DNA of 50,553 nt from an uncultured Syntrophaceae bacterium (GCA_964547985.1 CAZJPV010000015.1:1-50553); one strand, 5' to 3'; positions 6,964 through 29,044 are shown, numbered from the stretch's first letter. Numbers and translations are program-made. Notes: generated from the sequence alone by a model not told the origin.

Positions 6964-7196
6964 CTTCCTGCTGCGCTTTTTGAGTTTATTGACGCTGAAA
7001 AACTTTCCACAAGATATCGGGATTGTCCATAGAAAAATTTCAGAGGGTTTAAACAGGTGTTTGTTTACAAAATTGTCCTTGAAATAAAGAATCGGGCTGG
7101 CATAAACTTCGCAAGAAATGGATAAAGCTGGATTTTTCAAGCGTGACATTGATAGGATTTGTTGTCGGGGAGGGCGTTTTGGCTGACGGGAAGGCA

Positions 7197-7535
7197 ATGG
7201 AGGATCATCGTCCCTGGGGTTACTTTTGCGTGATCAGTGATGAGCCCGATCACAAAGTCAAAAGGATCGTCATCCATCCCGGGAAGCGGTTGAGTCTGCA
7301 AAGACATCGCCTTCGCGCGGAGCACTGGTTCATCCTCTCCGGGGAGGTTGTGGTGACAAGGGGCAGCGATGAGATCCGTCTCGAAGCCGGGCAGTCGATC
7401 GATATCCCGAAAGGGGCCCTGCACCGTGCCATGAACCAGGGGACGGAAGACGCCGTTGTCATCGAAGTGCAAACGGGGGATTATTTCGGTGAGGACGACA
7501 TCGAACGTGTGGAAGACGATTTCGGTCGAGCGTAG
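7197..7535 (+). CDS. cupin-domain protein resembling the C-terminal cupin of type II phosphomannose isomerase / bifunctional ManC
   Basis: Cupin motifs (HPGKRLSLQRHRLRAEHWFILSGEVVV ... GALHRAMNQG). Lies 15 bp upstream of manC. Confidence 0.6.
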   Translation: MEDHRPWGYFCVISDEPDHKVKRIVIHPGKRLSLQRHRLRAEHWFILSGEVVVTRGSDEIRLEAGQSIDIPKGALHRAMNQGTEDAVVIEVQTGDYFGEDDIERVEDDFGRA

Positions 7536-7549
7536 AAAAGGACCTGTCC

Positions 7550-8638
7550 ATGGAATCGAGTGAACTCAACCTGGTTGCCACGATCATGGCCGGAGGCACG
7601 GGAACGAGATTCTGGCCCATGAGCACGAAGAATAGGCCCAAGCAGTTCTTGAAGCTCTTCGGCGAAAGGAGCCTCCTGCAGAAGAGTTATGACCGGATTC
7701 GTGACCTTTTGCCGGTCGAGAGAGTTCTCGTTCTGACTAACGCGGCCCATGTAGTGCTGGTCCGGGAGCAGTTGCCCGAACTTCCCCCCGGGAACGTCAT
7801 CGGGGAGCCCCTCAAGCGCGACACCGCTGCAGCTGTCGGACTCGCGGCGGCGCTCTGCCGGAGGCGTTTCGGAAACCCCGTTATCCTGACCCTCACGGCC
7901 GATCATTTGATTGAACCCGTCGACCTTTTTCAAAAGACCCTTCTCTCCGCGGCGGGGAAAGCCTCCGAGGACAATGTGCTCTATACCTTCGGCATCAAGC
8001 CGGATTACCCGGCCACGGGCTACGGGTATCTGGAGTTCGGCCAGCGGGTCTGCCAGGACGGCGGGATCGAGCATTTCGAGCTTGTGAGATTCAAGGAAAA
8101 ACCGGACGTGGAAACGGCGAAGAGCTATCTATCCCTGGGCAGGTTTTACTGGAACTCCGGGATGTTTGTCTGGACGGCTGACGCCATCCTGCGGGAGTTG
8201 GAGGCAAAACTCCCTAATCATTATCGGTGTATGACGGGAGCGGCTGCAAGCGACGGGACCCCGGCATGGCAAAAGGCGCTGGAGGATGCGTTCCACGAGG
8301 TTCACGCCATTTCCATCGACTACGGTGTGATGGAAAAAGCGGCTCGTGTCAGGGCCGTGGCCGCCCGATTTTCGTGGACGGACGTGGGGGGATGGCTCTC
8401 CATCGAGGCATACCTTCCGAAGGACAGGGCGGGAAACGCCTTCCGGGGTGAAATCTTCACGCTCGACAGCGGGGGGAATCTTGTCTTTTGCGAAGACGCT
8501 GATGAGCAGGTGATGCTGATCGGTCTTAAGGATCTCGTCATCGTCCGGACCGGAAAGAAGACCCTCATCATGAAGAAAGAAAAGGCCGAGGAACTCAAAA
8601 ATCTCGTCAGGGCCCTTGAAGAGAAAGAAAGCACTTAA
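7550..8638 (+). CDS. manC: mannose-1-phosphate guanylyltransferase (GDP-mannose pyrophosphorylase)
   Basis: Nucleotidyltransferase N-terminus IMAGGTGTRFWPMSTKNRPKQFL. Length and conserved blocks typical of ManC/GMP. Confidence 0.85.
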   Translation: MESSELNLVATIMAGGTGTRFWPMSTKNRPKQFLKLFGERSLLQKSYDRIRDLLPVERVLVLTNAAHVVLVREQLPELPPGNVIGEPLKRDTAAAVGLAAALCRRRFGNPVILTLTADHLIEPVDLFQKTLLSAAGKASEDNVLYTFGIKPDYPATGYGYLEFGQRVCQDGGIEHFELVRFKEKPDVETAKSYLSLGRFYWNSGMFVWTADAILRELEAKLPNHYRCMTGAAASDGTPAWQKALEDAFHEVHAISIDYGVMEKAARVRAVAARFSWTDVGGWLSIEAYLPKDRAGNAFRGEIFTLDSGGNLVFCEDADEQVMLIGLKDLVIVRTGKKTLIMKKEKAEELKNLVRALEEKEST

Positions 8639-9096
8639 GCACCGTCGCTTCAGAGGTGATAGCCTGAAAGGTTGGAAAAAATGGATTGAAAATAGAAGCA
8701 CAATGAAATTATAATAGTACATAAAAATGATTTCTTAATATATCCGAATACCTCCTTACCCTCATGGCCTCATTTCCTTTCAAGCAGTCCTGATCGATCA
8801 AAAGGAAGTATCATAAGAAATTCAGGGCCGCTTCATCAGAAAGACGCGCTGTAGGACAATAAAAAAAGTCAGCGCACTCATTCATGCCCGTACTTTGTGA
8901 TTGGATGAGGATATATGCTATCCTGTTTACTATACAGGTATCCTGATGGAAGAACTCATACTCGCTGATATCAACCTAATATCGGTTGTGCATGATGACT
9001 CGATTGTGCCCGCTGATCAAAAAAGTGGCCTGGGGGGGTCAATTTCACGCCCTGTTAGCCTGGAATACACGGGGCCTGGACAAGAAGGAGGTTATT

Positions 9097-10584
9097 GTGG
9101 ACGCCGCATATCTTAGTGGACTTGTTTCCCGGATCACGAAAGGGGCAAAAGTCATTATCGTCTCGAACAGGGAACCCTGTATGCATGAACGGGACATGGG
9201 GGGCATCTGTGTTGTCCGGCCTGCGAGTGGGATGGTCGCTGCCCTTGAACCGATCGTCAGGGCGACGAGAGGAACCTGGGTGGCTCATGGTTCAGGATCG
9301 GCTGACCGTCTCGTCACGGATGAGAAGGGGAGAATTGCTATTCCCCCCGAGGATCCCAAGTACATTCTGAGGCGCCTCTGGCTCACGAAAAAGGAAGAGG
9401 ACGGATATTATTACGGCATTTCCAATCAGGCCCTGTGGCCCCTTTGTCATATCGTTTACACACGGCCCCGGTTCTCGAGAACGGACTGGGAGATTTACGA
9501 GCGCGTAAACAGGCGCTTCTGTGATGCGGTTCTGGAGGAGGTCGGAAGCAGCCCCGCTTTTGTGTTTATACAGGACTACCATCTCGCGTTACTGCCCCGG
9601 ATGCTCAGGAAGGAGAGAGAGGACCTCATCCTCGCTCACTTCTGGCACATTCCCTGGCCCAATCGCGAGGCCTTCCGAATATTTCCCTGGGGGGAAGAGA
9701 TCCTGGACGGGCTGCTCGCCAATGACCTTCTGGGATTTCATATTCAGTATCACTGTAACAATTTCATGGACACGGTGGACCGGGGGATCGAGGCAAAGGT
9801 CGACTACGAACACTACCAGATTTTCCGTGGGGGGCATCCAACCCACGTCCGATCCTTCCCGATCAGTGTGGATTTTCATCAGGTCGGCAAAGACGCGACC
9901 TCTCCCCCTGTGGAGGAAAAACGGCAGAATTTCATCAGGGAGATCGGGGAAAAAATTCTGGAAACAAAGATCTACGTCGGGGCAGACCGGCTGGACTACA
10001 CAAAGGGTATCCCGGAGCGGATGAAGGGATATGACCTCATGCTGAGGCTTCACCCGGAACTCCGGGGAAAAGTAACCCTGCTGCAGCTGGCGGCCCCCAG
10101 CAGGATCCATATAGAAGAATATAGAGACATTAATGAGGAACTCGATGACCTGGTGGATGAAATCAACTGGCGTCATCAGACGGAGGATTGGACCCCCATC
10201 CGTTATCTCCGGGCGCATCACGATTATCATTCCGTTCTTGCTTCCTACAGGATGGCCGATGTGGTCATGGTCACCTCGCTCCACGATGGCATGAATCTTG
10301 TTGCCAAAGAGTTCATTTCCGCCAAAACCGAGGGTGACGGCGTTCTCCTCCTTTCACAGTACACCGGTGCGGCGAGGGAGTTGCCGGATGCCCTTATGGT
10401 TAATCCATATGATATCGATCAGCTCGCTGACGCCATGTACGAGGCTTATCACCTGACTGAAAAAGAGCGAAGGAAACGGCTGAAGCGTTTGAGGAAACAG
10501 GTTCAGATGAACACCGTCTATGACTGGTGCGGAAAGATTTTTGGGGAGCTGGAAAAGATTCTGCTCCTAAAAGAGCGTGGTTGA
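9097..10584 (+). CDS. otsA: GT20-family alpha,alpha-trehalose-phosphate synthase (OtsA-like; GgpS-like not excluded)
   Basis: GTG start preceded by AAGAAGGAGG at a 6-nt spacing. GT20 hallmarks VVSNREP, HDYHL, and C-terminal [10 protein letters not shown]. Confidence 0.8.
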
Positions 10585-11339
10585 TGCAACCAAAGGTAAA
10601 GGATACCCGCAGACTCTGGATTTTTGATTTCGACGGAACGCTGTCAAATCTGGTGCCCGGACGATCGGCAGCACAGATTCTGCCGGAGGCAAAAAATCTT
10701 CTGAAGGAACTCTCGGATCTGCCGGGCCACCAGGTGGCGGTGCTCTCAAGCCGTCTGCTCGAGGATCTCATCCCGAGGGTCGGTGTCTCCGGGGTCTATC
10801 TGGGAGGCGGAAGCGGCGCCGAGTGGCGTTTAAAAGACGGAATTCAAACAGTCGCGGGAGAAAAATTGGAACGGCTGAAAAAAATCAGAGAGACCGTCAT
10901 GGATGAAATCAACGGGCTGAAGGCTGTACCGGGCGTCGACATTGAAGACAAGAAATGGTCGGTGGCCGTCCACATCAGGAGCGTTTTGCCCGATGCCCGG
11001 GCATCGGTGCTCGATTTTCTCAGGGCGTTTCAAGGGAAGGGCGATATCCGCCTCCTGCGAGGGCCGGAGGTATTTGAGGTACAGCTTCTTCCTGAAATCG
11101 ACAAGCTTTTTGGTGTAAAAACACTTTGCAGGCTGGCATCTTTCGAGCCCCGGGAGGGATTACTCGTCTATGCCGGTGACGATGAGAATGATGCCATAGC
11201 CATGGATTGGGTGATCCGGCAGGGAGGGACGGCGATTTCAATCGGCCCTCGCCCTTTGGTTCCCGGGGTTAGATCGGTGGCGACGCCTGCTGCGCTTGTG
11301 ACAGAGATTGTGCAACTCGCCGGAATTAAATCATTTTGA
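10584..11339 (+). CDS. otsB: trehalose-6-phosphate phosphatase (HAD superfamily)
   Basis: ATG overlaps the otsA stop (TGATG). HAD motif I FDFDGTLS. C-terminal GDDENDAIAM motif. Confidence 0.75.
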   Translation: MQPKVKDTRRLWIFDFDGTLSNLVPGRSAAQILPEAKNLLKELSDLPGHQVAVLSSRLLEDLIPRVGVSGVYLGGGSGAEWRLKDGIQTVAGEKLERLKKIRETVMDEINGLKAVPGVDIEDKKWSVAVHIRSVLPDARASVLDFLRAFQGKGDIRLLRGPEVFEVQLLPEIDKLFGVKTLCRLASFEPREGLLVYAGDDENDAIAMDWVIRQGGTAISIGPRPLVPGVRSVATPAALVTEIVQLAGIKSF

Positions 11340-17880: not shown

Positions 17881-19068
17881 TCAAGACGGGTTGGCGTCCC
17901 ATTGCCGCCGGACGATCCACAGCAGGGGGACGGACAGAAGTTGAGCTCCAACGGAAAAAAGAACAAGGGCCGCGATGGAAATATCGTAAAGATAGCCCAT
18001 CAGGGCGCTGCCTGCAAACCAGAAGATTCCGTATCCTGTATTGAACACCCCGTAGGCGGTCCCGCGCCTGTCGGATGCAATCATCTTTGCGACGGCCGCA
18101 CGCATAATCGACTCCTGAGCACCCATGCCGATGCCCCAGAGAACGACTCCCGCGAGAGCAGGCCAAAAGCCACCCCAAAAGACGAGAGGGGCAAAGGCTG
18201 CCGAGATGAAGACTGATCCGATGAGGATCCCGAATCCGACCCGGTCAAAAAGATACCCGAACAACAGAGCCGCCAGGGCGTCGACACCCATCGCAATCGA
18301 GTAAAAAACAGGGATCCAATCCCTGGGAATGGAGGCGACGTGTCCAAAATGATAGGCAATGAGCGGGTAGTCGGCATACCCTGCCGCAATAAATGATACG
18401 CCGCTCAGGTAAAGCCAGAAAACACCTGGAAAAGCAGATGGGGATTTGATGCTCGTCGCTTCCAGGTCCTGAGGTGTCGGGTAAAGCATTCTTGCAGCGA
18501 GAAGGATCACGACGGCCAGCAGTGCCGGGACGAGCAGTGCGGCAAAACCCTCCCGATAGGTTCCTTTTAAAATCAGGATCCCGGCCACGATCAAGGGACC
18601 CAGCATGGCCCCGGCTTGATCCATCGCCTCGTGAAGGCCGAATCCCCATCCCCGTCCCATTTGATGCGTGGCATGAGACAACATCGCATCACGGGCCGGG
18701 GTACGAACCGCCTTGCCGAGACGCTCCAACATGACAAGTGCCGCGGCTATGTCCCATCGGTTCGCTAGGGCGAGGACAGGAACAGCGAAGAGATTGATCA
18801 CGTAGCCGACAATAGTGATCGTCCAATATCGGCGCGTGCGATCGCTGATATACCCGGATATCAGCCGAAGGCCGTACCCGATCAACTCACCGAATCCGGC
18901 GACGATACCGACCACCGTGGCACTTGCACCCAGGCTGCCGAGAAACGGACCGGTGATGCTTCTTGCCCCCTCGTAGGTCATGTCCGCAAACAGACTGACG
19001 ATACCGAGGAGCACGACGAAACGGAATGCCTTCGTCCTCCCGGCTATGCTGCGAGCCTCAGGGGCCAT
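17881..19068 (-). CDS. MFS transporter
   Basis: About 12 hydrophobic segments. Conserved DRxGRR-like loop (SDRTRRYW; ASDRRGTAY). Confidence 0.8.
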   Translation of the reverse strand: MAPEARSIAGRTKAFRFVVLLGIVSLFADMTYEGARSITGPFLGSLGASATVVGIVAGFGELIGYGLRLISGYISDRTRRYWTITIVGYVINLFAVPVLALANRWDIAAALVMLERLGKAVRTPARDAMLSHATHQMGRGWGFGLHEAMDQAGAMLGPLIVAGILILKGTYREGFAALLVPALLAVVILLAARMLYPTPQDLEATSIKSPSAFPGVFWLYLSGVSFIAAGYADYPLIAYHFGHVASIPRDWIPVFYSIAMGVDALAALLFGYLFDRVGFGILIGSVFISAAFAPLVFWGGFWPALAGVVLWGIGMGAQESIMRAAVAKMIASDRRGTAYGVFNTGYGIFWFAGSALMGYLYDISIAALVLFSVGAQLLSVPLLWIVRRQWDANPS

Positions 19069-19379
19069 AATCCAGCCTACATTTTCTCTTGTTGTTGTTC
19101 ACGCACCTGTTGTGATTATTCTCAGGAGCGAGCCGAATGAACCGATGCCCGGCGCAAATTCAAGGGGCAGTTCCAACGGACCCGTTATAAAGAGCTTACC
19201 CGAAGTGTGTCAGTTTGCAGGAAACTCCTCAGCAGACGCCGTGCGTCAGTCACGGGAAAATCCGGCAAAAAATTCTACGACACACATCACGGCCGCATGT
19301 TCTATCTCTGTGATATCTTCGTGTCGATGCTGATGGCTCTGCTTTCGATTAAATTCGCTCAAGTGAGTCTTGATGGTCT

Positions 19380-20018
19380 TCAATCTCCCGATCGTATCGT
19401 AGACCAGAAACAAGAGTCCTTCACTGAGATCATGGTTGAAAAAAATGTCACGCAAATGGGGCAGGCAGATGCAGCAGGATGATGCATAGGTGTCTGCATT
19501 TCGGAACGGGCTAACATATCGACGAGCAGATTACCATAAAACCGGGAGGATCGCTGGAGGGATTCGCAGACGATGCAGTTCATCTTGGAAAAGGCGGGGA
19601 TGCCGTTCTTTTCGTTTTGAAGGGTTAGCCAGGCGGCTAAAAAATTCCCGATGTGGTGCCGAGGTTTCTTGTGCACATTTTTTTCGACGAAAGCCGTGAT
19701 CTTCTCGAACTGTATGAGGAATTCTGAAAGAAGGGTTTCATAAAGGTTGGCGTTACCGAAAGGGATCTGCCACATTCTTCTTTCCAACTCCAGAAGCTGC
19801 CAGGCGTGCATTCGGCAGAAACCCATGCCGGCAACGATCCGCCCCAGGGTTGACTGATCCTTCAAATTTTCACGCAGGAGGAACTGCATAAACCGCGTTA
19901 CCTCTGTCTGGCAAACGCGGCAAATGGGACATCCCGGCTCGTGAAGCGCACGCTCGAGGGTCATTTCGTCGAGATCTCTTTGTTTTTTATCATGGGGTAT
20001 TCTCTTTTTTATTTTCAT
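19380..20018 (-). CDS. Cys/His-rich uncharacterised protein, paralog C (212 aa), last gene of the novel operon
   Basis: Two copies of the C-x2-C ... C-x2-H module: CPIC...GFCRMHAWQL and CIVC...CPIC. Confidence 0.6.
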   Translation of the reverse strand: MKIKKRIPHDKKQRDLDEMTLERALHEPGCPICRVCQTEVTRFMQFLLRENLKDQSTLGRIVAGMGFCRMHAWQLLELERRMWQIPFGNANLYETLLSEFLIQFEKITAFVEKNVHKKPRHHIGNFLAAWLTLQNEKNGIPAFSKMNCIVCESLQRSSRFYGNLLVDMLARSEMQTPMHHPAASACPICVTFFSTMISVKDSCFWSTIRSGD

Positions 20019-20034
20019 AATCTATCAGGCCATT

Positions 20035-21129
20035 TCATGATTGAGTTTTCTTGCTGTCTTCCGGAGGAGATGCTCGCAGAGATTCCTTCTCGCTTTTCAA
20101 TCGGTCTATCGTATCTCTATACAAACTGATTCGTGATTTCGCGCCGGCGAGCTGTAACTGTAGGGTTTTATTATCCTCCATACATTTCCAGTAGCGATAG
20201 TGGAGAGAAGCAGCCCGAGTGCTTTCCTCGTTCAGCATTTTGTTCAGCCCTTCAATCTGACGTTTCAGTTTCTCGTTTTCAAAAGATTCTGCTTCGAACA
20301 GTTGACTAACATCTGCCACCCCTCCCTGATTTTCCTGTGAGGGGGAATAAAGAGGTTCATGGTCACCGGGCAAAGCATCTTTCACATCGGCGCCGGCTTC
20401 CAAAGAAAAAAGCAAGCCCTCCTTGCCGCAGGTAAATTCAAGGGCTTTTTCCCAGGCATGATCCGGAGGGCGGTCCGAAGATTCAGCTTGTGGAAGTCTT
20501 CCAAAGTGATGGTCCTGAAAAGCGCTTTTCATATACCTGGAAATTTCGACCTGTTTTTTGATGAGCATAGAAAGATGATTGTGACGGGGAAATTGCTCCA
20601 CCGCCATGAGGACGTGAGGAAAACAGATTTCGGCTGCGCGGTCAAATTCTCTGGCGAATCCGGGCTCATTAATGGCGTCGAGCAGAGTCTTGAGATAGGA
20701 TTTTTCGACGTGGTGCATGACCTGGCAGGCCCTGCATCTTTTTGCCCGGCCGGCAAGATATTCCGTTGATTTTATGGTATTTCGGTATGCCCTGAAGAGC
20801 CTTTTCAGCCCCGTTTCTCTTTCAAGCACATGGAGAATATTACCAAGGCAGGCCTCCAGATGCTTTAATTCCCCGTCGAGGATCGGATAGAGATCGGACG
20901 GATATGCATTTTTAAGCTGCCACATGTGATAAAAACATAATGAGCCGGGGTTTTTTTGTCTGCTTTTTCCTTCAGGCCCTGGATTCAATGACTTCAAGAA
21001 ATCGCTCAATACACCTCGGCATTGTTTTTGAACGAGGCTGCAAATCGGGCATCCGCCATCTTGGAGTTGATCCCATAATTCAAGATAAAGGAGACGGGAT
21101 TTTTTAATTGAGCAGGTAAATTTAGTCAC
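20035..21129 (-). CDS. Cys/His-rich uncharacterised protein, paralog B (364 aa) with C-terminal coiled-coil tail
   Basis: CPIC...LCFYHMWQL and CRAC...ICFPHVLM modules. C-terminal 110 aa is charged with heptad-like periodicity (EKLKRQIEGLNKMLNEE...). Confidence 0.6.
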   Translation of the reverse strand: MTKFTCSIKKSRLLYLELWDQLQDGGCPICSLVQKQCRGVLSDFLKSLNPGPEGKSRQKNPGSLCFYHMWQLKNAYPSDLYPILDGELKHLEACLGNILHVLERETGLKRLFRAYRNTIKSTEYLAGRAKRCRACQVMHHVEKSYLKTLLDAINEPGFAREFDRAAEICFPHVLMAVEQFPRHNHLSMLIKKQVEISRYMKSAFQDHHFGRLPQAESSDRPPDHAWEKALEFTCGKEGLLFSLEAGADVKDALPGDHEPLYSPSQENQGGVADVSQLFEAESFENEKLKRQIEGLNKMLNEESTRAASLHYRYWKCMEDNKTLQLQLAGAKSRISLYRDTIDRLKSEKESLRASPPEDSKKTQS

Positions 21130-21532
21130 GGCTTGGGCTTCTCCTGCTGACGGTGTGGAAAGATTTTAGCATTTGCCTCGCGAATCGGCTCACTAGTCTC
21201 GATTCGTGATCCTTCAGGCTTCTAATTATATCCAGGCATTCGTCATTTCCAATCTTCGATAGGGCCACGATGATTTGCCTTATCGCGTAAAAATCATCAC
21301 CCGCGCGAATGATCGACCTGAAGGCGGGCACCGCCGCCTGGCTTTTCATGTCTCCGAGCAACTGTATGGCCATCATCCTATGTTCCCTCACCGGATGTCT
21401 CAGAGCGAGCATCAGTTTTTCTTCATAAGGCAGGGTCCCATATTCCGAAAGCTTATATCCACAGTGCGGACAGCGCACTTCTTTTTCTTTTATTTCGGTC
21501 CAGCAGCATGGGCAATAGAAATGAGCAGCCAT
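21122..21532 (-). CDS. Zn-ribbon plus HEAT-repeat protein (136 aa)
   Basis: N-terminal CPCC...CPHC zinc ribbon, then PBS-lyase-like HEAT repeats. Overlaps the downstream gene by 8 nt. Confidence 0.6.
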   Translation of the reverse strand: MAAHFYCPCCWTEIKEKEVRCPHCGYKLSEYGTLPYEEKLMLALRHPVREHRMMAIQLLGDMKSQAAVPAFRSIIRAGDDFYAIRQIIVALSKIGNDECLDIIRSLKDHESRLVSRFARQMLKSFHTVSRRSPSRD

Positions 21533-21535
21533 CGG

Positions 21536-22429
21536 TTAAATCATAGAGGCCAGGACAGAAAGGCCATCGATCGCATAATAGGTGTTCTCGAGTGTTGCGA
21601 TCCCACCATGCATTAGCCTCGAGAATCCTCCGTTTCGGTTCTGGCAATGCAGGATGAAATTTGCACAATCGTCAAGGTAGTGTGGCTGGTAGGACATAAT
21701 ATTGGAAGCTACAATGCCGGCGTAAACGTATTCGATGTAGGAGAGGGAGGTGCGGGGAACATCCGTGAACCCGTAGAACGGGATTTCGCAATTTTTGATG
21801 AAAGCCGTTGATTCCATTTTTTCAACCGAATAGCCCAGGCGGCTCAGAATGATCAGCGCTCTCGATGTTTCGCTGAGAGATGAATGCCGGTGCCCGAATC
21901 CTTTGTCCTCGTTTTCAAAGTACAGAATGAAGTCAGCAATGCCCTGCTCGATTCGGCTGTCCGCCATTTTCAGGCTGTAATAAAGATCGACCAGGTAAGA
22001 GGTCCTTTTAAAGAGATAACTGATTTCAATTGGAAGGTGTTCGACATCAAATCGATAATGCCGTAAGTTCTTTGTCACGTAAGGCACAGGATCGTAAGCC
22101 GGCTCCTCCCGAAGCATCTGCAAGCCTTTGATCGAATAGTAGGCCATGTAGACACTGTTATAGGAGCCATCCGGGTGCTGCATGTTACGCAGCTGGATGA
22201 GTGTCTTGTCATCCTGGAATTCGATACCCATCAGGGCCAAGATGGACAGAGCATAGAATGTGTCCGAACCGTTGGGCTCCTCCAACTTGTAGAAGCAGAA
22301 ACCACCCGCTTGACATTTGCGTTCCAGGACGTAGCGGATCACACGGTCTCTGAAGTCCGGATCCCGCAGGAGCTCCCCAGCGATGCTCCTTCTCCGGTCT
22401 TTCATGTTGATTCGAAGCGGAGATGTCAT
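21536..22429 (-). CDS. prenyltransferase / squalene-oxidase repeat (alpha/alpha-toroid) protein (297 aa)
   Basis: Repeated QxxDGGF-type motifs (QAGGFCF, QHPDGSYN, ENEDKGFGH, QNRNGGFSR), each followed by TxYAL..L.L.G-like segments (DTFYALSILALMG; NTYYAIDGLSVLASMI). Confidence 0.65.
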   Translation of the reverse strand: MTSPLRINMKDRRRSIAGELLRDPDFRDRVIRYVLERKCQAGGFCFYKLEEPNGSDTFYALSILALMGIEFQDDKTLIQLRNMQHPDGSYNSVYMAYYSIKGLQMLREEPAYDPVPYVTKNLRHYRFDVEHLPIEISYLFKRTSYLVDLYYSLKMADSRIEQGIADFILYFENEDKGFGHRHSSLSETSRALIILSRLGYSVEKMESTAFIKNCEIPFYGFTDVPRTSLSYIEYVYAGIVASNIMSYQPHYLDDCANFILHCQNRNGGFSRLMHGGIATLENTYYAIDGLSVLASMI

Positions 22430-22872
22430 TGTCGTCCCTTGTCATTGCTCTGCAACAGGGCCGTTTCAATGTATTTCGCCATCGGCCGTAACTTCAGGAC
22501 GATGTCATCCAGTTCGAGGGCCGCTTTCTTGGACGGAGCCCCATAACCCCTCATGTGCACGGGCCTCAACTCCTGAATGGCGATGCCCACAAATTGAAGT
22601 GTCACACGAATGACATGCTGGGTGCTCATCAACGTCTGGTGGTTCGATATTCCCTTACTTTCGAGTATGCGGCACATGGTTTTACGAAATTCGGATATGT
22701 TCGTTTCCAGAGACTCTCTCTGCGCAGGATGGACATCGGTGGCATATCTTGGAAAGCAGGCTTTCCCGTTTCCGAGGTCGAGCAATGTTTCTATCTCGCA
22801 GAAGAGATGATCTATGTGCTTAAATGCATTTAGCAAAGCCCTTTTGTGGTTTTCATTCAGCTCTGTCATCAT
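22426..22872 (-). CDS. hypothetical protein (148 aa)
   Basis: ORF translationally coupled to the toroid gene (ATGA). No recognisable motif. Confidence 0.55.
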   Translation of the reverse strand: MMTELNENHKRALLNAFKHIDHLFCEIETLLDLGNGKACFPRYATDVHPAQRESLETNISEFRKTMCRILESKGISNHQTLMSTQHVIRVTLQFVGIAIQELRPVHMRGYGAPSKKAALELDDIVLKLRPMAKYIETALLQSNDKGRQ

Positions 22873-22934
22873 ACCCTAGCCTGAGAAGTTTTCACTATCA
22901 TAATTTAACACCCTTTTGAGGCGAAGACAGCGTC

Positions 22935-23639
22935 CTATAGACCCGGTTTGAAAGGCGTGTAGACGTTCCTTGAACCTGCTATGCTCTTGAGGGCACGGAG
23001 ATAAACTTCTTTTTCGTCCATGGTCAGCATGTATCTTTGCAAGGTGTTTCGCTTTGAAACAAAATTTTCCATGCGGGTTGCCATTTCCTCGTAGCGATTT
23101 GCCGCGTGGGACAATAGAAACCTTGTGACTCTTCCGGAGGAAGCAATTAAAACAAGTTGGCATAGGTGTCTGAGGCAAGCACCCTGAGACTGTCCGTAAA
23201 CCCGGCTGCCTTCCGGATCCTCGAGAAAATGGCCGAATTTTACAAGATAGGAATATTCCTTATCGCTGATAAGACGGCAAAGGCGGCAGTCTTCCACGCC
23301 TCTCACGATTTCTGAAAGTGCCTTTGTCGCGTCTCCTGCCTTTTCGGTGCCACGGGACAGTTGAGATGACAGACGTCTTAGAAGTCTTGGAAACCCCGAG
23401 GAAATGCCGAGGGGAGACGAGAAAGAGGCTAACTGCCATGTGTGTAACGGGCAAAACCCGAGTTCGTGCGCGTATTGATGCTTGGCTTCTTCATCGTTTG
23501 CCAGACGATTCTGCCATTCTGCAAAGAAGACCGCCGTGATTTTTTCCAGATGGTCACATATCGGGCAACTGTTCATCCGCAGATCTTTCAATATATCTTC
23601 TTCAAAGGATTGCTTTAATTTGGTAGCGTCTCTATTCAT
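22935..23639 (-). CDS. Cys/His-rich uncharacterised protein, paralog A (234 aa)
   Basis: CPIC...GFCPLHTWQL and CRLC...GACLRHLCQL modules. Overlaps the upstream gene (ATGA). Confidence 0.6.
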   Translation of the reverse strand: MNRDATKLKQSFEEDILKDLRMNSCPICDHLEKITAVFFAEWQNRLANDEEAKHQYAHELGFCPLHTWQLASFSSPLGISSGFPRLLRRLSSQLSRGTEKAGDATKALSEIVRGVEDCRLCRLISDKEYSYLVKFGHFLEDPEGSRVYGQSQGACLRHLCQLVLIASSGRVTRFLLSHAANRYEEMATRMENFVSKRNTLQRYMLTMDEKEVYLRALKSIAGSRNVYTPFKPGL

Positions 23640-24310
23640 ATTTTATCCTCTATCATGCTTGGGTGCTTTTGGCGCGATTTAAGCTTGCGTTCAAGGATTT
23701 CTCTGATGCCAAGCGGGTAACCACCTGACAGTTCAGATAACGAACGGATGTGATCTTCATACCAACCGAGATTATGCTGGGCGCAAAAATGCCTGAATAC
23801 TTTCAGCGTGTCATCTATCTTCATGTGCCGTAACGCAAGCGTCTCAGACGGAAGCAGAGTCGCACGCAGATGGAAAAGGGCTTTGCCCAACGAGGATTCA
23901 TCAACGATTGCAATAAAGCGGAATCGCTTCTCATCGGAAAGATAACGCAAAAATGCCAGTTTTTGGGGAGTCAGTTTCACGATGTCATCGAGTACCAAAA
24001 TATGCTGCCTTATGTCTTTTAATTTCATGTGAACAATGCGGAAACGGTTAGATTTATAACCTCGGACCTTCGTTTTTCGATCATAAATATTTCCTGCAAA
24101 TAGATCCCTCATGAGTTGTCTGCTTAAAGTACCTGGCGTTTGAGAAAAGTCCATGAATACGAACCGCCATCTTTTGCTGGTCTTGCGGGCGACATGCCGG
24201 ACAAGGCTGGATCGTCCTATGCCAAATTTGCCAGTCAGAACGATGTTTTTACCTTCTTCCAGCCATCCGATGATCTTCTTCGTTTCCCGTTCACGGCCTG
24301 TGAAAATCAT
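23636..24310 (-). CDS. P-loop NTPase-like protein (archaeal-ATPase / AAA-like N-domain) with Walker A Lys replaced by Arg
   Basis: FTGRERETKKIIGWLEEGKNIVLTGKFGIGRSSL resembles the PF01637-type FxGRExEL...GxxGxGKTSL pattern but carries GRS instead of GKS/T. Walker-B-like ILVLDDI. Confidence 0.55.
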   Translation of the reverse strand: MIFTGRERETKKIIGWLEEGKNIVLTGKFGIGRSSLVRHVARKTSKRWRFVFMDFSQTPGTLSRQLMRDLFAGNIYDRKTKVRGYKSNRFRIVHMKLKDIRQHILVLDDIVKLTPQKLAFLRYLSDEKRFRFIAIVDESSLGKALFHLRATLLPSETLALRHMKIDDTLKVFRHFCAQHNLGWYEDHIRSLSELSGGYPLGIREILERKLKSRQKHPSMIEDKI

Positions 24311-25293
24311 GTCATCCGTTCTGTGTATTTATCTCTGACTTCCGTAATAAAATGCTGGGAGTTATCACTTCTTTTTTCGTCAAAGGAAAGTTCGTACAGA
24401 GTTTTTATGTGGCCCCGTCCGATTTCCAGCTGTAGAAAAGACAGGCGGTGCCCGTGAACAAGTTTCTCAATGTGGGCTGCCCCCAAAAGTGCGTCCATGG
24501 GAATACAGCAAATATTGACGCCGAAGGTCAGCATTTTTGGACTCAGGGCGTGATCATCGATCGCATGAATCAAACCATGATCGGTCGCCACAAAGATTCC
24601 TTCCGTTGCCAGGCATGCCTTTCTTCGCCGTTTCTTACCGGCACCCCAGATCTCCGATGAGCGAAAGACATGAGACGGCCTTTCACCCTCTGTGATGATC
24701 GGTTTCAACATCTCCAGCTGTGGTTTGGCCGTCTGGCCGAATATGCCGATCCACAACGGATTTTCCGCGGATACAGGATCCGTCGAGTACCCTAAAGTCA
24801 GTCTTCGGTATTCACGAATCACCGATGCAAAGTGCTGGTTGCCGGTGGCTGTATATGTCATGGAAACCCTGGATATAACACCCTCAGCGACATGATGAAT
24901 GACGAACCAACCCAGGAGAAGGGCGTTTCCATACTCGACTCTGATGACCGTCGAAAAAGGAATCGTCTCCACAGTCGGGGGGATGCCGCCCACATGGTGA
25001 TCCTTCGAAACAATAAAGCGCTTCGACGTGACCGCAACCGCATGTGAAGCGGGCTCCGCCTCTATCCCGAAGCGGACCTGATCCGTCTGCCGGATCGGCG
25101 CGTAAAGAAGGTAGTACAGTTTCTCTTCCGGAGTGAGCGCCCCTGCGATGAGATCGGCGTGAACCCCCAAAAGACCCTCGGGTTTTTCCGTTCTGAAGAC
25201 ATAAGGTTCTTTCCCTCGGGATTGGTACGGTGCCATTTTCAAAGACATCTTATCCTGACCGCCGTTCATAACGATGATGTCCCTTCTCTCCAA
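24307..25293 (-). CDS. hypothetical protein (328 aa), first gene of the novel operon
   Basis: Long ORF coupled (ATGA) to the next gene. No recognisable motif. N-terminal start uncertain. Confidence 0.5.
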   Translation of the reverse strand: MERRDIIVMNGGQDKMSLKMAPYQSRGKEPYVFRTEKPEGLLGVHADLIAGALTPEEKLYYLLYAPIRQTDQVRFGIEAEPASHAVAVTSKRFIVSKDHHVGGIPPTVETIPFSTVIRVEYGNALLLGWFVIHHVAEGVISRVSMTYTATGNQHFASVIREYRRLTLGYSTDPVSAENPLWIGIFGQTAKPQLEMLKPIITEGERPSHVFRSSEIWGAGKKRRRKACLATEGIFVATDHGLIHAIDDHALSPKMLTFGVNICCIPMDALLGAAHIEKLVHGHRLSFLQLEIGRGHIKTLYELSFDEKRSDNSQHFITEVRDKYTERMT

Positions 25294-25780
25294 ATTGAGC
25301 CGAAATCACTGATGCCATTCACTGTGTCCAAGGTTCCGTAAGCGGTTCCAGATGGCTCATCCCGGAACTCATTTCTGTGGGCTATATTCAGCCCTGTGTC
25401 TCCTCAAGCCATAAAAAATGCCCGCAAGGCAGACAAGGATTGCAAGCCATAAAATGTGTGAAGAAATGAAGGCAAAAACCAGGAAAGGTGGTGACGACCA
25501 CACCATGAGGGCGTGTCAAACAGAAGGCGTAGGTAGTGCGGTTAAACCATCGGCTAGTGCTGCCCACCACTCGCACGTTGTTTTCGTTTTCCACCATAAT
25601 CGTAAATGTTCCCCTCTGTGACACAGTAGTCCGTTTTTCCCTTCCTGGGCGGCGCATGAAAGAGAATTGCAAGAGGAGTCATCAGCTCGAGGGAGCAATT
25701 ACGGTGGACCCCATCACCGGTTCAGGAGTCATCAGTCCTCGGGGACATTCTCGGGGGCGGACTCCATCGCCGGAGAAAAG

Positions 25781-28824
<3,044 letters not shown>

Positions 28825-29044
28825 AAAAAAACTCCCCTGATGTATAGCACTCAGAGGAGTTATCAGCCTTTAGGGCAGTTAAGGTGAACTCCATCACCGC
28901 CCGAATAAATCCGGGAGATATACTTTCCTAACACAGAAGGGCTCCTGTTGTCAAGCCCGCACTGGTTACAAGACTGTAATCGTTGATTTCACTTTGTTTT
29001 TAAGTTAGGATGCCATCGTACAAGCTGGTCCGGAAGGTACAGAG

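Follow-up and report, generated by a model that had tools for sequence, protein, structure and literature searches.

DUF6062, a family of duplicated Cys/His modules, in a fluoride-riboswitch-led operon of an uncultured Syntrophaceae bacterium

The known bacterial defence against fluoride consists of exporters (Fluc/CrcB and CLC-F) and of extra copies of the enzymes that fluoride poisons, of which enolase is the classic target. The linkage of mutS-like genes to the fluoride riboswitch was reportedly noted in 2010, and several classes of riboswitch-linked genes are said to be still unexplained. The exporter genes and those for Na+/H+ antiporters belong to the known fluoride regulon, as do the genes for enolase, pyrophosphatase, HAD phosphatases and the mutS-like proteins, which are known associates of the riboswitch (PMC11139923, PMC2864571). 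Mg mediates the poisoning of NTPases by fluoride (PMC11139923, PMC2864571, PMC12700350).

The same upstream RF01734 aptamer is found in the DNA analysed here, a stretch of 50,553 nucleotides from an uncultured Syntrophaceae bacterium (GCA_964547985.1 CAZJPV010000015.1:1-50553), hereafter the window. It leads genes for proteins of the family DUF6062. Loci that carry this family share enolase, pyrophosphatase, HAD and MutS_V ATPase genes with the known regulon, and crcB/DUF190 in two cases (L002, L030). PMC2864571 and PMC11139923 discuss neither DUF6062 nor dynamin-like GTPases as associates; an earlier listing by Baker et al. 2012 is possible. Neither the combination of fluoride, riboswitch and dynamin nor a description of fluoride-riboswitch control of dynamin-like proteins was found in the literature searched.

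Gene order and riboswitches in the window

Two fluoride riboswitches were identified on the minus strand at scores above the RF01734 gathering score of 34 bits in Rfam cmscan (Table 1). The second has a syntenic counterpart in three related loci (L001, L011, L018); about 370 nt separate it from the first ORF, and this leader contains a terminator-like hairpin. Downstream of riboswitch 2, on the coding strand of the aptamer, eight genes run from 25293 to 19246 and are tightly spaced or overlapping.

Table 1. Features of the fluoride-riboswitch-led region, in the direction of transcription
Feature	Position	Strand	Evidence and remarks
Fluoride riboswitch 1 (RF01734)	28847-28907	-	cmscan 48.5 bits, E 1.7e-10; 22 nt upstream of dynamin-like gene
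Bacterial dynamin-like GTPase, 559 aa	27145-28824	-	Pfam Dynamin_N 1.9e-27
Enolase	25781-27085	-	NCBIfam TIGR01060 eno, 649 bits; co-transcribed behind riboswitch 1
Fluoride riboswitch 2 (RF01734)	25666-25727	-	cmscan 44.6 bits, E 3.3e-9; leads eight-gene DUF6062 operon
First operon ORF, 328 aa	24307-25293	-	no family match; end overlaps next gene by 4 nt
Small P-loop ATPase, AAA_16/STAND-like, 224 aa	23636-24310	-	Pfam AAA_16 6.5e-9, AAA_22, NB-ARC
DUF6062 paralog C, 234 aa	22935-23639	-	PF19538 38.6 bits
Conserved 148-aa protein	22426-22872	-	no family match
Prenyltransferase/terpene-cyclase-like alpha/alpha-toroid protein, 297 aa	21536-22429	-	Pfam Prenyltrans 3.9e-16
Zinc-ribbon + HEAT-repeat protein, 136 aa	21122-21532	-	Pfam HEAT_2 6.9e-9, Zn_Ribbon_1
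DUF6062 paralog B, 364 aa	20035-21129	-	PF19538 33.1 bits; DUF6062 domain + C-terminal tail
DUF6062 paralog A	19246-20018	-	PF19538 33.1 bits (truncated ORF); 257 aa when intact, frameshifted here
MFS_1 transporter	17881-19068	-	recurrent in related fluoride clusters

The dynamin-like GTPase behind riboswitch 1 contains a hydrophobic paddle-like segment at residues 466-480 and has orthologs in related fluoride clusters, and enolase is present in 15 of the 27 related loci. The 328-aa first ORF has its sole partial homolog in L001, and the Prenyltrans protein occurs, among the related loci, only in L001, L011 and L018. Homologs of the 148-aa protein adjoin dynamin-like genes in five loci (L001, L005, L009, L018, L024). 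The last 4 nt of the AAA_16 ATPase gene are also the first 4 nt of DUF6062-C, and an ATPase of this type adjoins stand-alone C-type DUF6062 genes in L001, L011, L018 and L021. Similarly, the gene of the Zn-ribbon/HEAT protein overlaps DUF6062-B by 8 nt at its end and adjoins DUF6062 genes in L001, L004, L006, L009, L028 and L032. A protein identical to B is on record (P0001). The MFS_1 transporter is found in 12 related loci, being 52-77% identical in eight of them and 25-35% in the other four, and its gene is directly riboswitch-led in L002 and L012; it is a probable part of the DUF6062 unit. The paired MutS_V ATPases that typify the cluster at other loci are missing from the window locus.

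Two other identities were tried for this region and rejected. A magnetosome (mad gene) assignment, suggested by the HEAT, MFS and dynamin proteins, was dropped, since the window contains metabolic genes of ordinary kinds and none of the mam type. Metabolite biosynthesis, suggested by enolase, prenyltransferase, HAD and HIT, was dropped because the RF01734 riboswitches place these genes in the fluoride regulon.

The DUF6062 domain and its predicted fold

An earlier note on this DNA had described A, B and C as three paralogs, each built from a duplicated Cys/His module. They are present as three minus-strand ORFs where the note had placed them, and their relationship is borne out by pairwise BLASTP (E 9e-7 to 3e-4) and by membership in a common Pfam family. 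Every motif string quoted in the note (GFCRMHAWQL, LCFYHMWQL, GFCPLHTWQL and others) occurs in the translations. The cysteines and histidines lie at C27/C30 and C65/H68, then C132/C135 and C169/H172 in B; at C25/C28 and C63/H66, then C118/C121 and C155/H158 in C; and, in the frameshifted ORF of the window, at C30-x2-C33 and C68-x2-H71, then C148-x2-C151 and C186-x2-C189 in A. Within each module, the two motifs begin 37-38 positions apart in all three proteins, and no hydrophobic segment is present in any of them. When profiles of the N- and C-terminal halves were aligned, CxxC fell on CxxC and CxxH on CxxH (hhalign probability 97.4%, E 1.5e-11), which confirms the internal duplication. Conservation of the eight ligand columns is 98.7-100% over 399 DUF6062 domains, which come from 352 proteins, and the His of CxxH is found in 394 of 394 domains at one site and in 392 of 394 at the other. 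The conservation and the alignment of the halves together place the motif pattern beyond chance.

The duplicated motif is real in the three proteins, but the second CPIC reported for A is an artefact. Relative to contig L029, which is 99.93% identical to the window and in which gene A is intact (as it also is in P0003), one C of a CC pair is missing at window position 19492. The apparent CPIC at residues 186-189 is consequently read out of frame; in the correct frame the same DNA encodes SSCCICLPHLRD, with a canonical CxxH, and the last motif of intact A reads CICLPH. The true C-terminus is encoded at 19246-19491. Of the span 19380-20018 assigned to the gene earlier, the 20018 end holds, whereas the other end moves to 19246 once the deletion is corrected. 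A may not be functional in this strain. The frameshift, the riboswitches and the link to dynamin-like GTPases are all absent from the earlier note.

All three proteins are members of an uncharacterised family, DUF6062 (Pfam PF19538). Each exceeds the gathering cut-off of 27 bits for the whole-protein score (Table 1), and the domain is present in 89 of 89 homologs. The eight family ligands are complete in B and C, and in A after correction of the 1-nt deletion. A, B and C share with PF19538 a domain length of about 230 aa, two CxxC...CxxH modules and the HxWQL signature; they differ from it in that B carries an additional tail, which has the look of a coiled coil when judged by eye and is conserved in P0029, and in that the window copy of A is frameshifted. 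In a set of 1.84 billion proteins, DUF6062 has 5,499 representatives at E<=1e-3. The domain had been thought unrecognised and unnamed, which does not hold. It has a name but not a known function: Pfam enters it as a family of unknown function, and no mention of DUF6062 or PF19538 was found in the literature searched. The refuting case that the note set out, a match to a well-known named domain of known function, therefore applies only by half.

The fold had been suggested to be treble-clef-like, which would place the first two ligands on a beta-hairpin zinc knuckle and the last two at a helix N-terminus. The AlphaFold (AF2) model of C (pLDDT 92.2) contains 12 helices, no strands and no beta-hairpin knuckle. 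The ligand pairs of C start helices H26-48, H64-73, H119-140 and H156-165 in turn, and they likewise lie at helix starts in the model of a GTPase-DUF6062 fusion. On the all-alpha model of C, a treble-clef or zinc-ribbon identity was ruled out. No sequence or fold match was found among solved structures. DUF6062 is thus predicted to be a soluble, all-helical domain derived from a duplicated two-helix-cap metal site, in which a CxxC at one helix N-terminus and a CxxH at another, 37-38 residues on, would form the two Cys3His sites of each domain, with structural Zn as the most probable metal. Helical Cys/His zinc sites are known from the ZAS anti-sigma factors (RsrA-type, HxxxCxxC), in which Cys and His at helix ends also hold an all-helical bundle. 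In contrast to these, DUF6062 has CxxC...CxxH twice and no HxxxCxxC, and no sigma factor gene adjoins it.

Taken as a whole, the earlier interpretation has a novel, unnamed Zn finger of tandem treble-clef-like form, whose three copies would serve as alternative subunits of a single complex; this is very unlikely. The duplicated module, the occurrence of three paralogs in one operon and the tandem fusions found elsewhere, which support co-assembly, speak for it; the catalogued family, the predicted all-alpha fold with no zinc knuckle and the frameshift artefact among its motifs speak against it. It is also distinctly improbable that CxxC and CxxH act as a thiol-disulfide switch or as Fe-S ligands, with DUF6062 as a redox sensor in an anaerobe. 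A CPxC that starts a helix does resemble thioredoxin-type redox motifs, some Fe-S clusters have 3Cys+1His ligation, and the host appears to be anaerobic, as judged from a 2-oxoacid:ferredoxin oxidoreductase and from rubrerythrin in L029. However, the aerobes Niastella vici and Microlunatus endophyticus carry the family equally, the clusters are without Fe-S assembly or redox partner genes, and the invariance of the His at both sites fits Zn in a Cys3His site.

Riboswitches and GTPase fusions at related loci

The 27 related loci cover at least nine phyla, including Verrucomicrobiota, Planctomycetota, Bacillota, Bacteroidota, Actinomycetota, Acidobacteriota and Desulfobacterota. RF01734 was matched 56 times in 22 of them, with one to five aptamers each. 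In 21 of these loci, an aptamer lies upstream of the DUF6062 gene on the same strand, and in L017, L019, L025 and L006 directly upstream. In L030, a distant stand-alone DUF6062 gene shares its operon with two crcB genes for fluoride channels and with DUF190, and ahead of the operon lies an aptamer of 33.7 bits, near the 34-bit threshold.

The recurrence of two to five fluoride riboswitches per locus across phyla argues against a defence island, in which the dynamin-like protein, the STAND-like ATPase and DUF6062 would form an anti-phage system and the riboswitches would be incidental. PADLOC-DB gave only partial P-loop or coiled-coil matches, for the dynamin, the AAA_16 ATPase and the tail of B. 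In favour of such a system are a weak match between the dynamin and LeoA (6.6e-10, confined to the N-terminal 80 residues), another weak match between AAA_16 and mad8/PDC-S01, and a lower GC across 20-24 kb. No PADLOC match was obtained for A, B, C or the 148-aa, 328-aa, Prenyltrans and Zn-ribbon/HEAT proteins, and the cluster contains a housekeeping-type enolase, pyrophosphatase and MFS transporter. We consider such a system extremely unlikely.

The closest relatives of the window proteins in other phyla are fused to a Dynamin_N G domain. Among the best 150 family representatives, 49 are Pfam-confirmed fusions of Dynamin_N and DUF6062; examples of such fusions are L016 (637 aa), P0108 and P0114. 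In another search, all of the best 120 matches were fusions of this kind. C is 35-44% identical to the C-terminal domain of such fusions, and most relatives carry the C-like domain tethered at the C-terminus of a dynamin-like GTPase of the IniA/BDLP class. Compared with IniA, BDLP, SynDLP and mitofusin, these fusions have the trunk and the paddle, the membrane-binding tip, swapped for a flexible linker and the soluble, Cys/His-rich DUF6062. The window locus differs from this class in that A, B and C stand alone with no fused Dynamin_N, and C is a separate polypeptide preceded by the AAA_16 ATPase. A further 44 of the same 150 representatives are tandem DUF6062-DUF6062 proteins, which support the earlier suggestion that the copies act together. 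A and B showed no clean orthology to the N- or C-domain of these tandem proteins; A-like sequences usually match the N-domain best, in a mixed pattern.

Some DUF6062 genes, of the Chloroflexi type, have no riboswitch and neighbour cobW, hypC and MoxR, so the core role of the family may be metal handling that is not specific to fluoride. DUF6062 might then be a metallochaperone or metal buffer and a client of the NTPases, which stores or delivers Zn, Fe or Ni and re-metallates or reactivates fluoride-disturbed enzymes, its Cys3His sites being exchangeable and not structural. This is consistent with the G3E metallochaperone GTPase CobW and MoxR/DUF58/DUF4129 beside the Chloroflexi-type members, with Nramp and MgtE-domain genes that adjoin DUF6062 and Zn-ribbon/HEAT in L032, with the consistent position of the family beside or fused to NTPases, and with a report that fluoride perturbs metal homeostasis (PMC12700350). 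Nevertheless, ligands that are predicted to sit at helix caps, buried in a confident bundle, and that are invariant in both halves look like typical structural sites. Moreover, fluoride binds hard cations (Mg, Al, Ca) and not thiolate-bound soft metals, and dynamin-class GTPases are not known to be metallochaperones. For these reasons, this alternative is regarded as unlikely.

A proposed role in the fluoride response

As a whole, the data are best explained if DUF6062 is the metal-stabilised effector or adaptor arm of a fluoride-induced NTPase machinery, a reading that we in part infer and consider somewhat probable. Since RF01734 aptamers lead the genes, expression of the eight-gene operon, directly downstream of the unit of riboswitch 1 with its membrane-type dynamin-like GTPase and enolase, would be expected to be switched on as cytoplasmic fluoride rises. 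DUF6062 would then serve P-loop NTPases as a non-catalytic arm. In most phyla, the C-type domain would be carried on a flexible linker at the C-terminus of a GTPase of the IniA/BDLP/mitofusin class, whereas here C is separate and its translation is apparently coupled to that of the small AAA_16 ATPase. A probably pairs with B, as in the tandem proteins, and both probably also pair with the Zn-ribbon/HEAT protein encoded next to them. Dimerisation of the NTPases, driven by nucleotide, would bring the DUF6062 modules or their binding partners together during the fluoride response. Candidate targets are the membrane and Mg-dependent enzymes that fluoride poisons, the co-encoded enolase among them. 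Counted against this explanation are the unfused state of C and its neighbour of a different NTPase kind (AAA_16), the lack of a MutS_V pair, the 370-nt leader with its terminator-like hairpin, the possible inactivity of A in this strain, and the Chloroflexi-type genes that have no riboswitch.

A broader version of this proposal is tentative and rather doubtful at present. DUF6062, the fused dynamin-like GTPases and the paired MutS-like ATPases could constitute a widespread, nucleotide-driven machine for fluoride defence that does not rely on export. Such a machine might remodel membranes or repair them, or it might free poisoned Mg enzymes (the co-encoded enolase and pyrophosphatase) of metal-fluoride complexes, with DUF6062 as a target-binding arm of a new two-metal helical fold.

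DUF6062 could represent a metal-binding fold that is new and for which no related structure has been solved. The locus links two groups to the fluoride regulon in at least nine phyla, thousands of uncharacterised DUF6062 proteins and one class of dynamin-like GTPases of bacteria, and it points to a widespread component of the bacterial response to fluoride stress that has gone unstudied. Culturable carriers (Niastella vici, Lucifera butyrica) and a simple expected phenotype, fluoride tolerance, provide a testable handle on the family, and its study could show bacterial dynamins in a new physiological role.

Family membership and duplicated module

Judged by their sequences, the minus-strand paralogs A, B and C are ordinary members of a catalogued, unstudied Pfam family, DUF6062 (PF19538), and match it with 33.1, 33.1 and 38.6 bits, all above the gathering score of 27. 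The earlier note had taken their domain to be unnamed, a claim that fails on this assignment. NCBIfam holds no model matching A, B or C, and no mention of DUF6062 or PF19538 was found in the literature searched. Searched exhaustively with a family profile, 1.84 billion representatives yielded 5,499 members at E<=1e-3, and 1,776 at the stricter cut-off of E<=1e-30.

The paralogy of the three proteins and their internal duplication, both proposed earlier, were upheld. Pairwise BLASTP matches are weak yet significant (E 9e-7 to 3e-4), and a profile-profile comparison of the N-terminal and C-terminal halves (probability 97.4%, E 1.5e-11) places CxxC over CxxC and CxxH over CxxH. The motif scan located C25/C28 and C63/H66, then C118/C121 and C155/H158, in C; C27/C30 and C65/H68, then C132/C135 and C169/H172, in B; and C30xxC33 and C68xxH71, then C148xxC151 and C186xxC189, in A, numbered on the ORF as found. 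From first residue to first residue, CxxC and CxxH are 37–38 residues apart in all modules of A, B and C. Aligning 60 diverse homologs showed little or no variation at the ligand positions or at P26, W68, Q69 and L70. Ligands were then counted over 399 domain instances from 352 proteins, both in the first module (C25 383/383, C28 385/385, C63 393/394, H66 394/394) and in the second (C118 392/394, C121 389/394, C155 394/394, H158 392/394). The profile match of the halves and this conservation therefore show that the duplicated module is real.

The motifs quoted in the earlier note are present in A, B and C, except that the fourth motif of A, 'CPIC', is a frameshift artefact. The database protein P0003 matches A at 100% through '...ARSEMQT' and then differs, continuing as 'TYASSCCICLPHLRDIFFNHD...', which is the product of a separate 69-aa window ORF (19246-19455). 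A related contig, L029, is 99.93% identical over 14.5 kb and reads CAGACCACC where the window reads CAGA-CACC. One C of a CC pair is thus missing at 19492 relative to L029, and A is split into 19380-20018 and 19246-19455. 'CPIC' is an out-of-frame translation; the correct frame gives C-I-C-L-P-H, a canonical CxxH, and intact A has 257 aa (19246-20018, minus). An assembly error could explain the deletion, as could a genuine frameshift allele.

An AlphaFold2 model of C, built from the 60-sequence alignment (mean pLDDT 92.2, pTM 0.86), has 12 helices and zero strands, and every ligand pair falls within the opening turn of its helix (H26-48, H64-73, H119-140, H156-165). The treble-clef-like fold suggested in the earlier note is ruled out for C because it requires a beta-hairpin knuckle and the predicted structure is strand-free. 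A Foldseek search against the PDB returned no solved relative (best E 0.62), and a profile search of PDB sequences gave no match below E 0.2. A sequence scan of A, B and C detected no membrane-grade hydrophobic segment.

The operon and its fluoride riboswitches

The paralogs lie in a compact minus-strand array in the order unk328, AAA_16, C, unk148, Prenyl, ZnR-HEAT, B and A, with intergenic gaps of -8 to +62 nt and 4-8 nt overlaps at unk328/AAA_16, AAA_16/C, unk148/Prenyl and ZnR-HEAT/B. Downstream of the array, in addition to the MFS transporter, genes encode HEAT, HAD-like and HIT proteins. Over 20001-24000 the GC content drops to 0.475-0.484, while the window's outer parts have 0.54-0.63.

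Features of the operon region
Feature	Position	Strand	Remarks
Riboswitch 1 (RF01734)	28847-28907	minus	48.5 bits; 22 nt upstream of dynamin-like gene
Dynamin-like GTPase	27145-28824	minus	559 aa; Dynamin_N 1.9e-27; upstream of array
Enolase	25781-27085	minus	upstream of array
Riboswitch 2 (RF01734)	25666-25727	minus	44.6 bits; between enolase and unk328
unk328	24307-25293	minus	328 aa; no family match; partial homolog only in related locus L001
AAA_16/STAND-like ATPase	23636-24310	minus	just before C
C	22935-23639	minus	234 aa
unk148	22426-22872	minus	148 aa; no family match
Prenyltransferase-like alpha/alpha toroid (Prenyl)	21536-22429	minus	
Zn-ribbon+HEAT (ZnR-HEAT)	21122-21532	minus	small; just before B
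B	20035-21129	minus	364 aa
A	19380-20018	minus	212 aa, as found in the window
MFS_1 transporter	17881-19068	minus	downstream of array

An Rfam scan of the 50.5-kb window gave exactly two matches, both to the fluoride riboswitch, which frame the dynamin-like GTPase and enolase unit and the DUF6062 operon. From its place, riboswitch 2 is taken as the leader of the DUF6062 operon. The distance to its first ORF is unusually long (~370 nt, 25293-25666, minus; 47 nt in L018), and this leader holds a terminator-like hairpin (25419-25435) and a 94-aa ORF (25388-25672). Neither crcB nor CLC-F was found among the window ORFs scanned. Residues 466-480 of the dynamin-like GTPase are strongly hydrophobic and resemble the membrane paddle of the bacterial dynamin-like protein BDLP.

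Related loci and domain architectures

Relatives of C were scanned in one genome per GTDB species, which gave 25 loci, and exact-protein look-up added three. The 25 are from Verrucomicrobiota, Planctomycetota, Lentisphaerota-type (Victivallaceae), Bacillota, Bacteroidota (including the cultured Niastella vici), Actinomycetota (Microlunatus endophyticus), Acidobacteriota, Desulfobacterota/Syntrophia-type, Chloroflexota and Bipolaricaulota. An Rfam scan of 27 distinct loci (472 kb) detected 56 fluoride riboswitches, spread over 22 of the loci and often at a density of 2-5 per 20 kb; the remaining five loci are short contigs (L015, L023) or distant Chloroflexi/Bipolaricaulota-type loci (L003, L026, L027). 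In 21 of the 27, the DUF6062 gene has a same-strand riboswitch upstream, which in some is close by, at 51 nt (L019), 83 nt (L025), 482 nt (L017) and 649 nt (L006).

Recurring neighbours in these loci are extra dynamin-like GTPases (24), a pair of MutS_V ATPases (16), enolase (15) and the MFS transporter (12), with occasional pyrophosphatase, metallophosphoesterase, HAD and HIT genes; L002 additionally carries crcB and DUF190. Published work names enolase, pyrophosphatase, HAD-fold phosphatases and 'mutS' genes as typical companions of fluoride riboswitches (PMC11139923, PMC2864571). Reading the cluster as a defence island is almost unsupported and very improbable. The MutS_V genes (~500 aa each; L001:13700-16824, L016:5727-8749), absent from the window, form a conserved pair that in most cases follows a fluoride riboswitch and immediately precedes the GTPase-DUF6062 gene; NCBIfam relates them weakly to MutS, MutS2 and the KamC reactivase ATPase. 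Eight of the 12 loci carrying the MFS gene have homologs 52-77% identical to the window's, and in L002 and L012 the gene is directly riboswitch-led; as the scanned window ORFs include neither crcB nor CLC-F, the window's transporter may be fluoride-related. Homologs of unk148 adjoin dynamin-like genes in L001, L005, L009, L018 and L024. ZnR-HEAT genes adjoin fused and stand-alone DUF6062 genes in the window, L001, L004 (10660-11031), L006 (10660-11004), L009, L028 and L032 (2050-2547), and their product is a likely partner of DUF6062 proteins. The verrucomicrobial L004 has three DUF6062 genes in a row behind one riboswitch (7168-10654), two stand-alone and then a GTPase fusion, mirroring the window's three-paralog set.

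A distant stand-alone member, P0040 (~26% identical to C), shares an operon (L030:7075-11469) with DUF190/CBS, DUF190 and two crcB genes, all in the same orientation. The aptamer ahead of this operon scores 33.7 bits, just below the gathering score (E 3.2e-7, local search). A second aptamer in L030 (45.3 bits) faces the opposite way, towards a NUDIX/NrtR-like gene.

Chloroflexi-type DUF6062 genes (L031:7087-12392; L003:10001-13639) lie without riboswitches near cobW, hupF/hypC, MoxR AAA+, DUF58 and DUF4129. Such contexts with cobW, hypC and MoxR/DUF58/DUF4129 point tentatively to metal handling, or a link with MoxR, in this branch, and the Nramp/MgtE neighbours in L032 also suggest metal handling; for DUF6062, a metal-handling role is considered unlikely.

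Eighteen of the 25 GTDB loci encode the C-like domain at the C-terminal end of a 528-1023-aa ORF with an N-terminal dynamin-type G domain. Pfam confirmed Dynamin_N together with DUF6062 in the 637-aa Niastella protein, P0108, P0114 and P0190. A search with the Niastella protein gave 1,719 proteins at E<=1e-10, some of which may match via the G domain alone; PF00350 and PF19538 are both present in 119 of its 120 top matches (precomputed Pfam). The 150 best family representatives comprise 49 C-terminal fusions of this size, 44 tandem DUF6062-DUF6062 proteins (an architecture that Pfam confirmed in P0090 and P0091), 36 stand-alone proteins and 21 with shorter N-terminal extensions. An AAA_16 ATPase precedes a stand-alone C-type gene only in Desulfobacterota-like loci (window, L001, L011, L018, L021). 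The AlphaFold2 model of a Lucifera butyrica fusion, LUCI_5062 (634 aa; pLDDT 80, pTM 0.74), has four parts: an N-terminal helical hairpin, a G domain with a three-helix bundle (through residue 378), a disordered linker (383-409) and the DUF6062 domain (415-620).

Possible mechanism and significance

Each module is predicted to bind one metal through Cys3His, most likely structural zinc. In favour of this are the invariance and duplication of the sites and their placement, suited to stapling helices; moreover, fluoride attacks hard cations and should leave soft thiolate sites untouched. An Fe-S or thiol-switch role for the same motifs appears quite improbable. The DUF6062 operon would be induced by fluoride, C would partner the overlapping AAA_16 ATPase as the fused domain partners its GTPase, and B would pair with A, like the tandem proteins. 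The coiled-coil-looking C-terminal tail of B, conserved in the database protein P0029, and the ZnR-HEAT protein could supply oligomerisation surfaces, and nucleotide-dependent dimerisation of the NTPases may gather DUF6062 modules or cargo. Fluoride poisons NTPases by Mg sequestration or through metal-fluoride transition-state mimics (PMC12700350). The output might be membrane remodelling alongside the paddle-bearing BDLP, or NTP-driven reactivation of fluoride-poisoned Mg enzymes, to which the weak similarity of the MutS_V ATPases to KamC is tied.

No paper combining fluoride, riboswitch and dynamin was found in the literature searched, nor any description of such a DUF6062/dynamin fluoride component in the accessible literature. 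The value of the finding lies in the genomic context rather than in the novelty of the domain. It points to DUF6062 proteins and their dynamin-like partners as a part of the fluoride response that is under riboswitch control and widely conserved.
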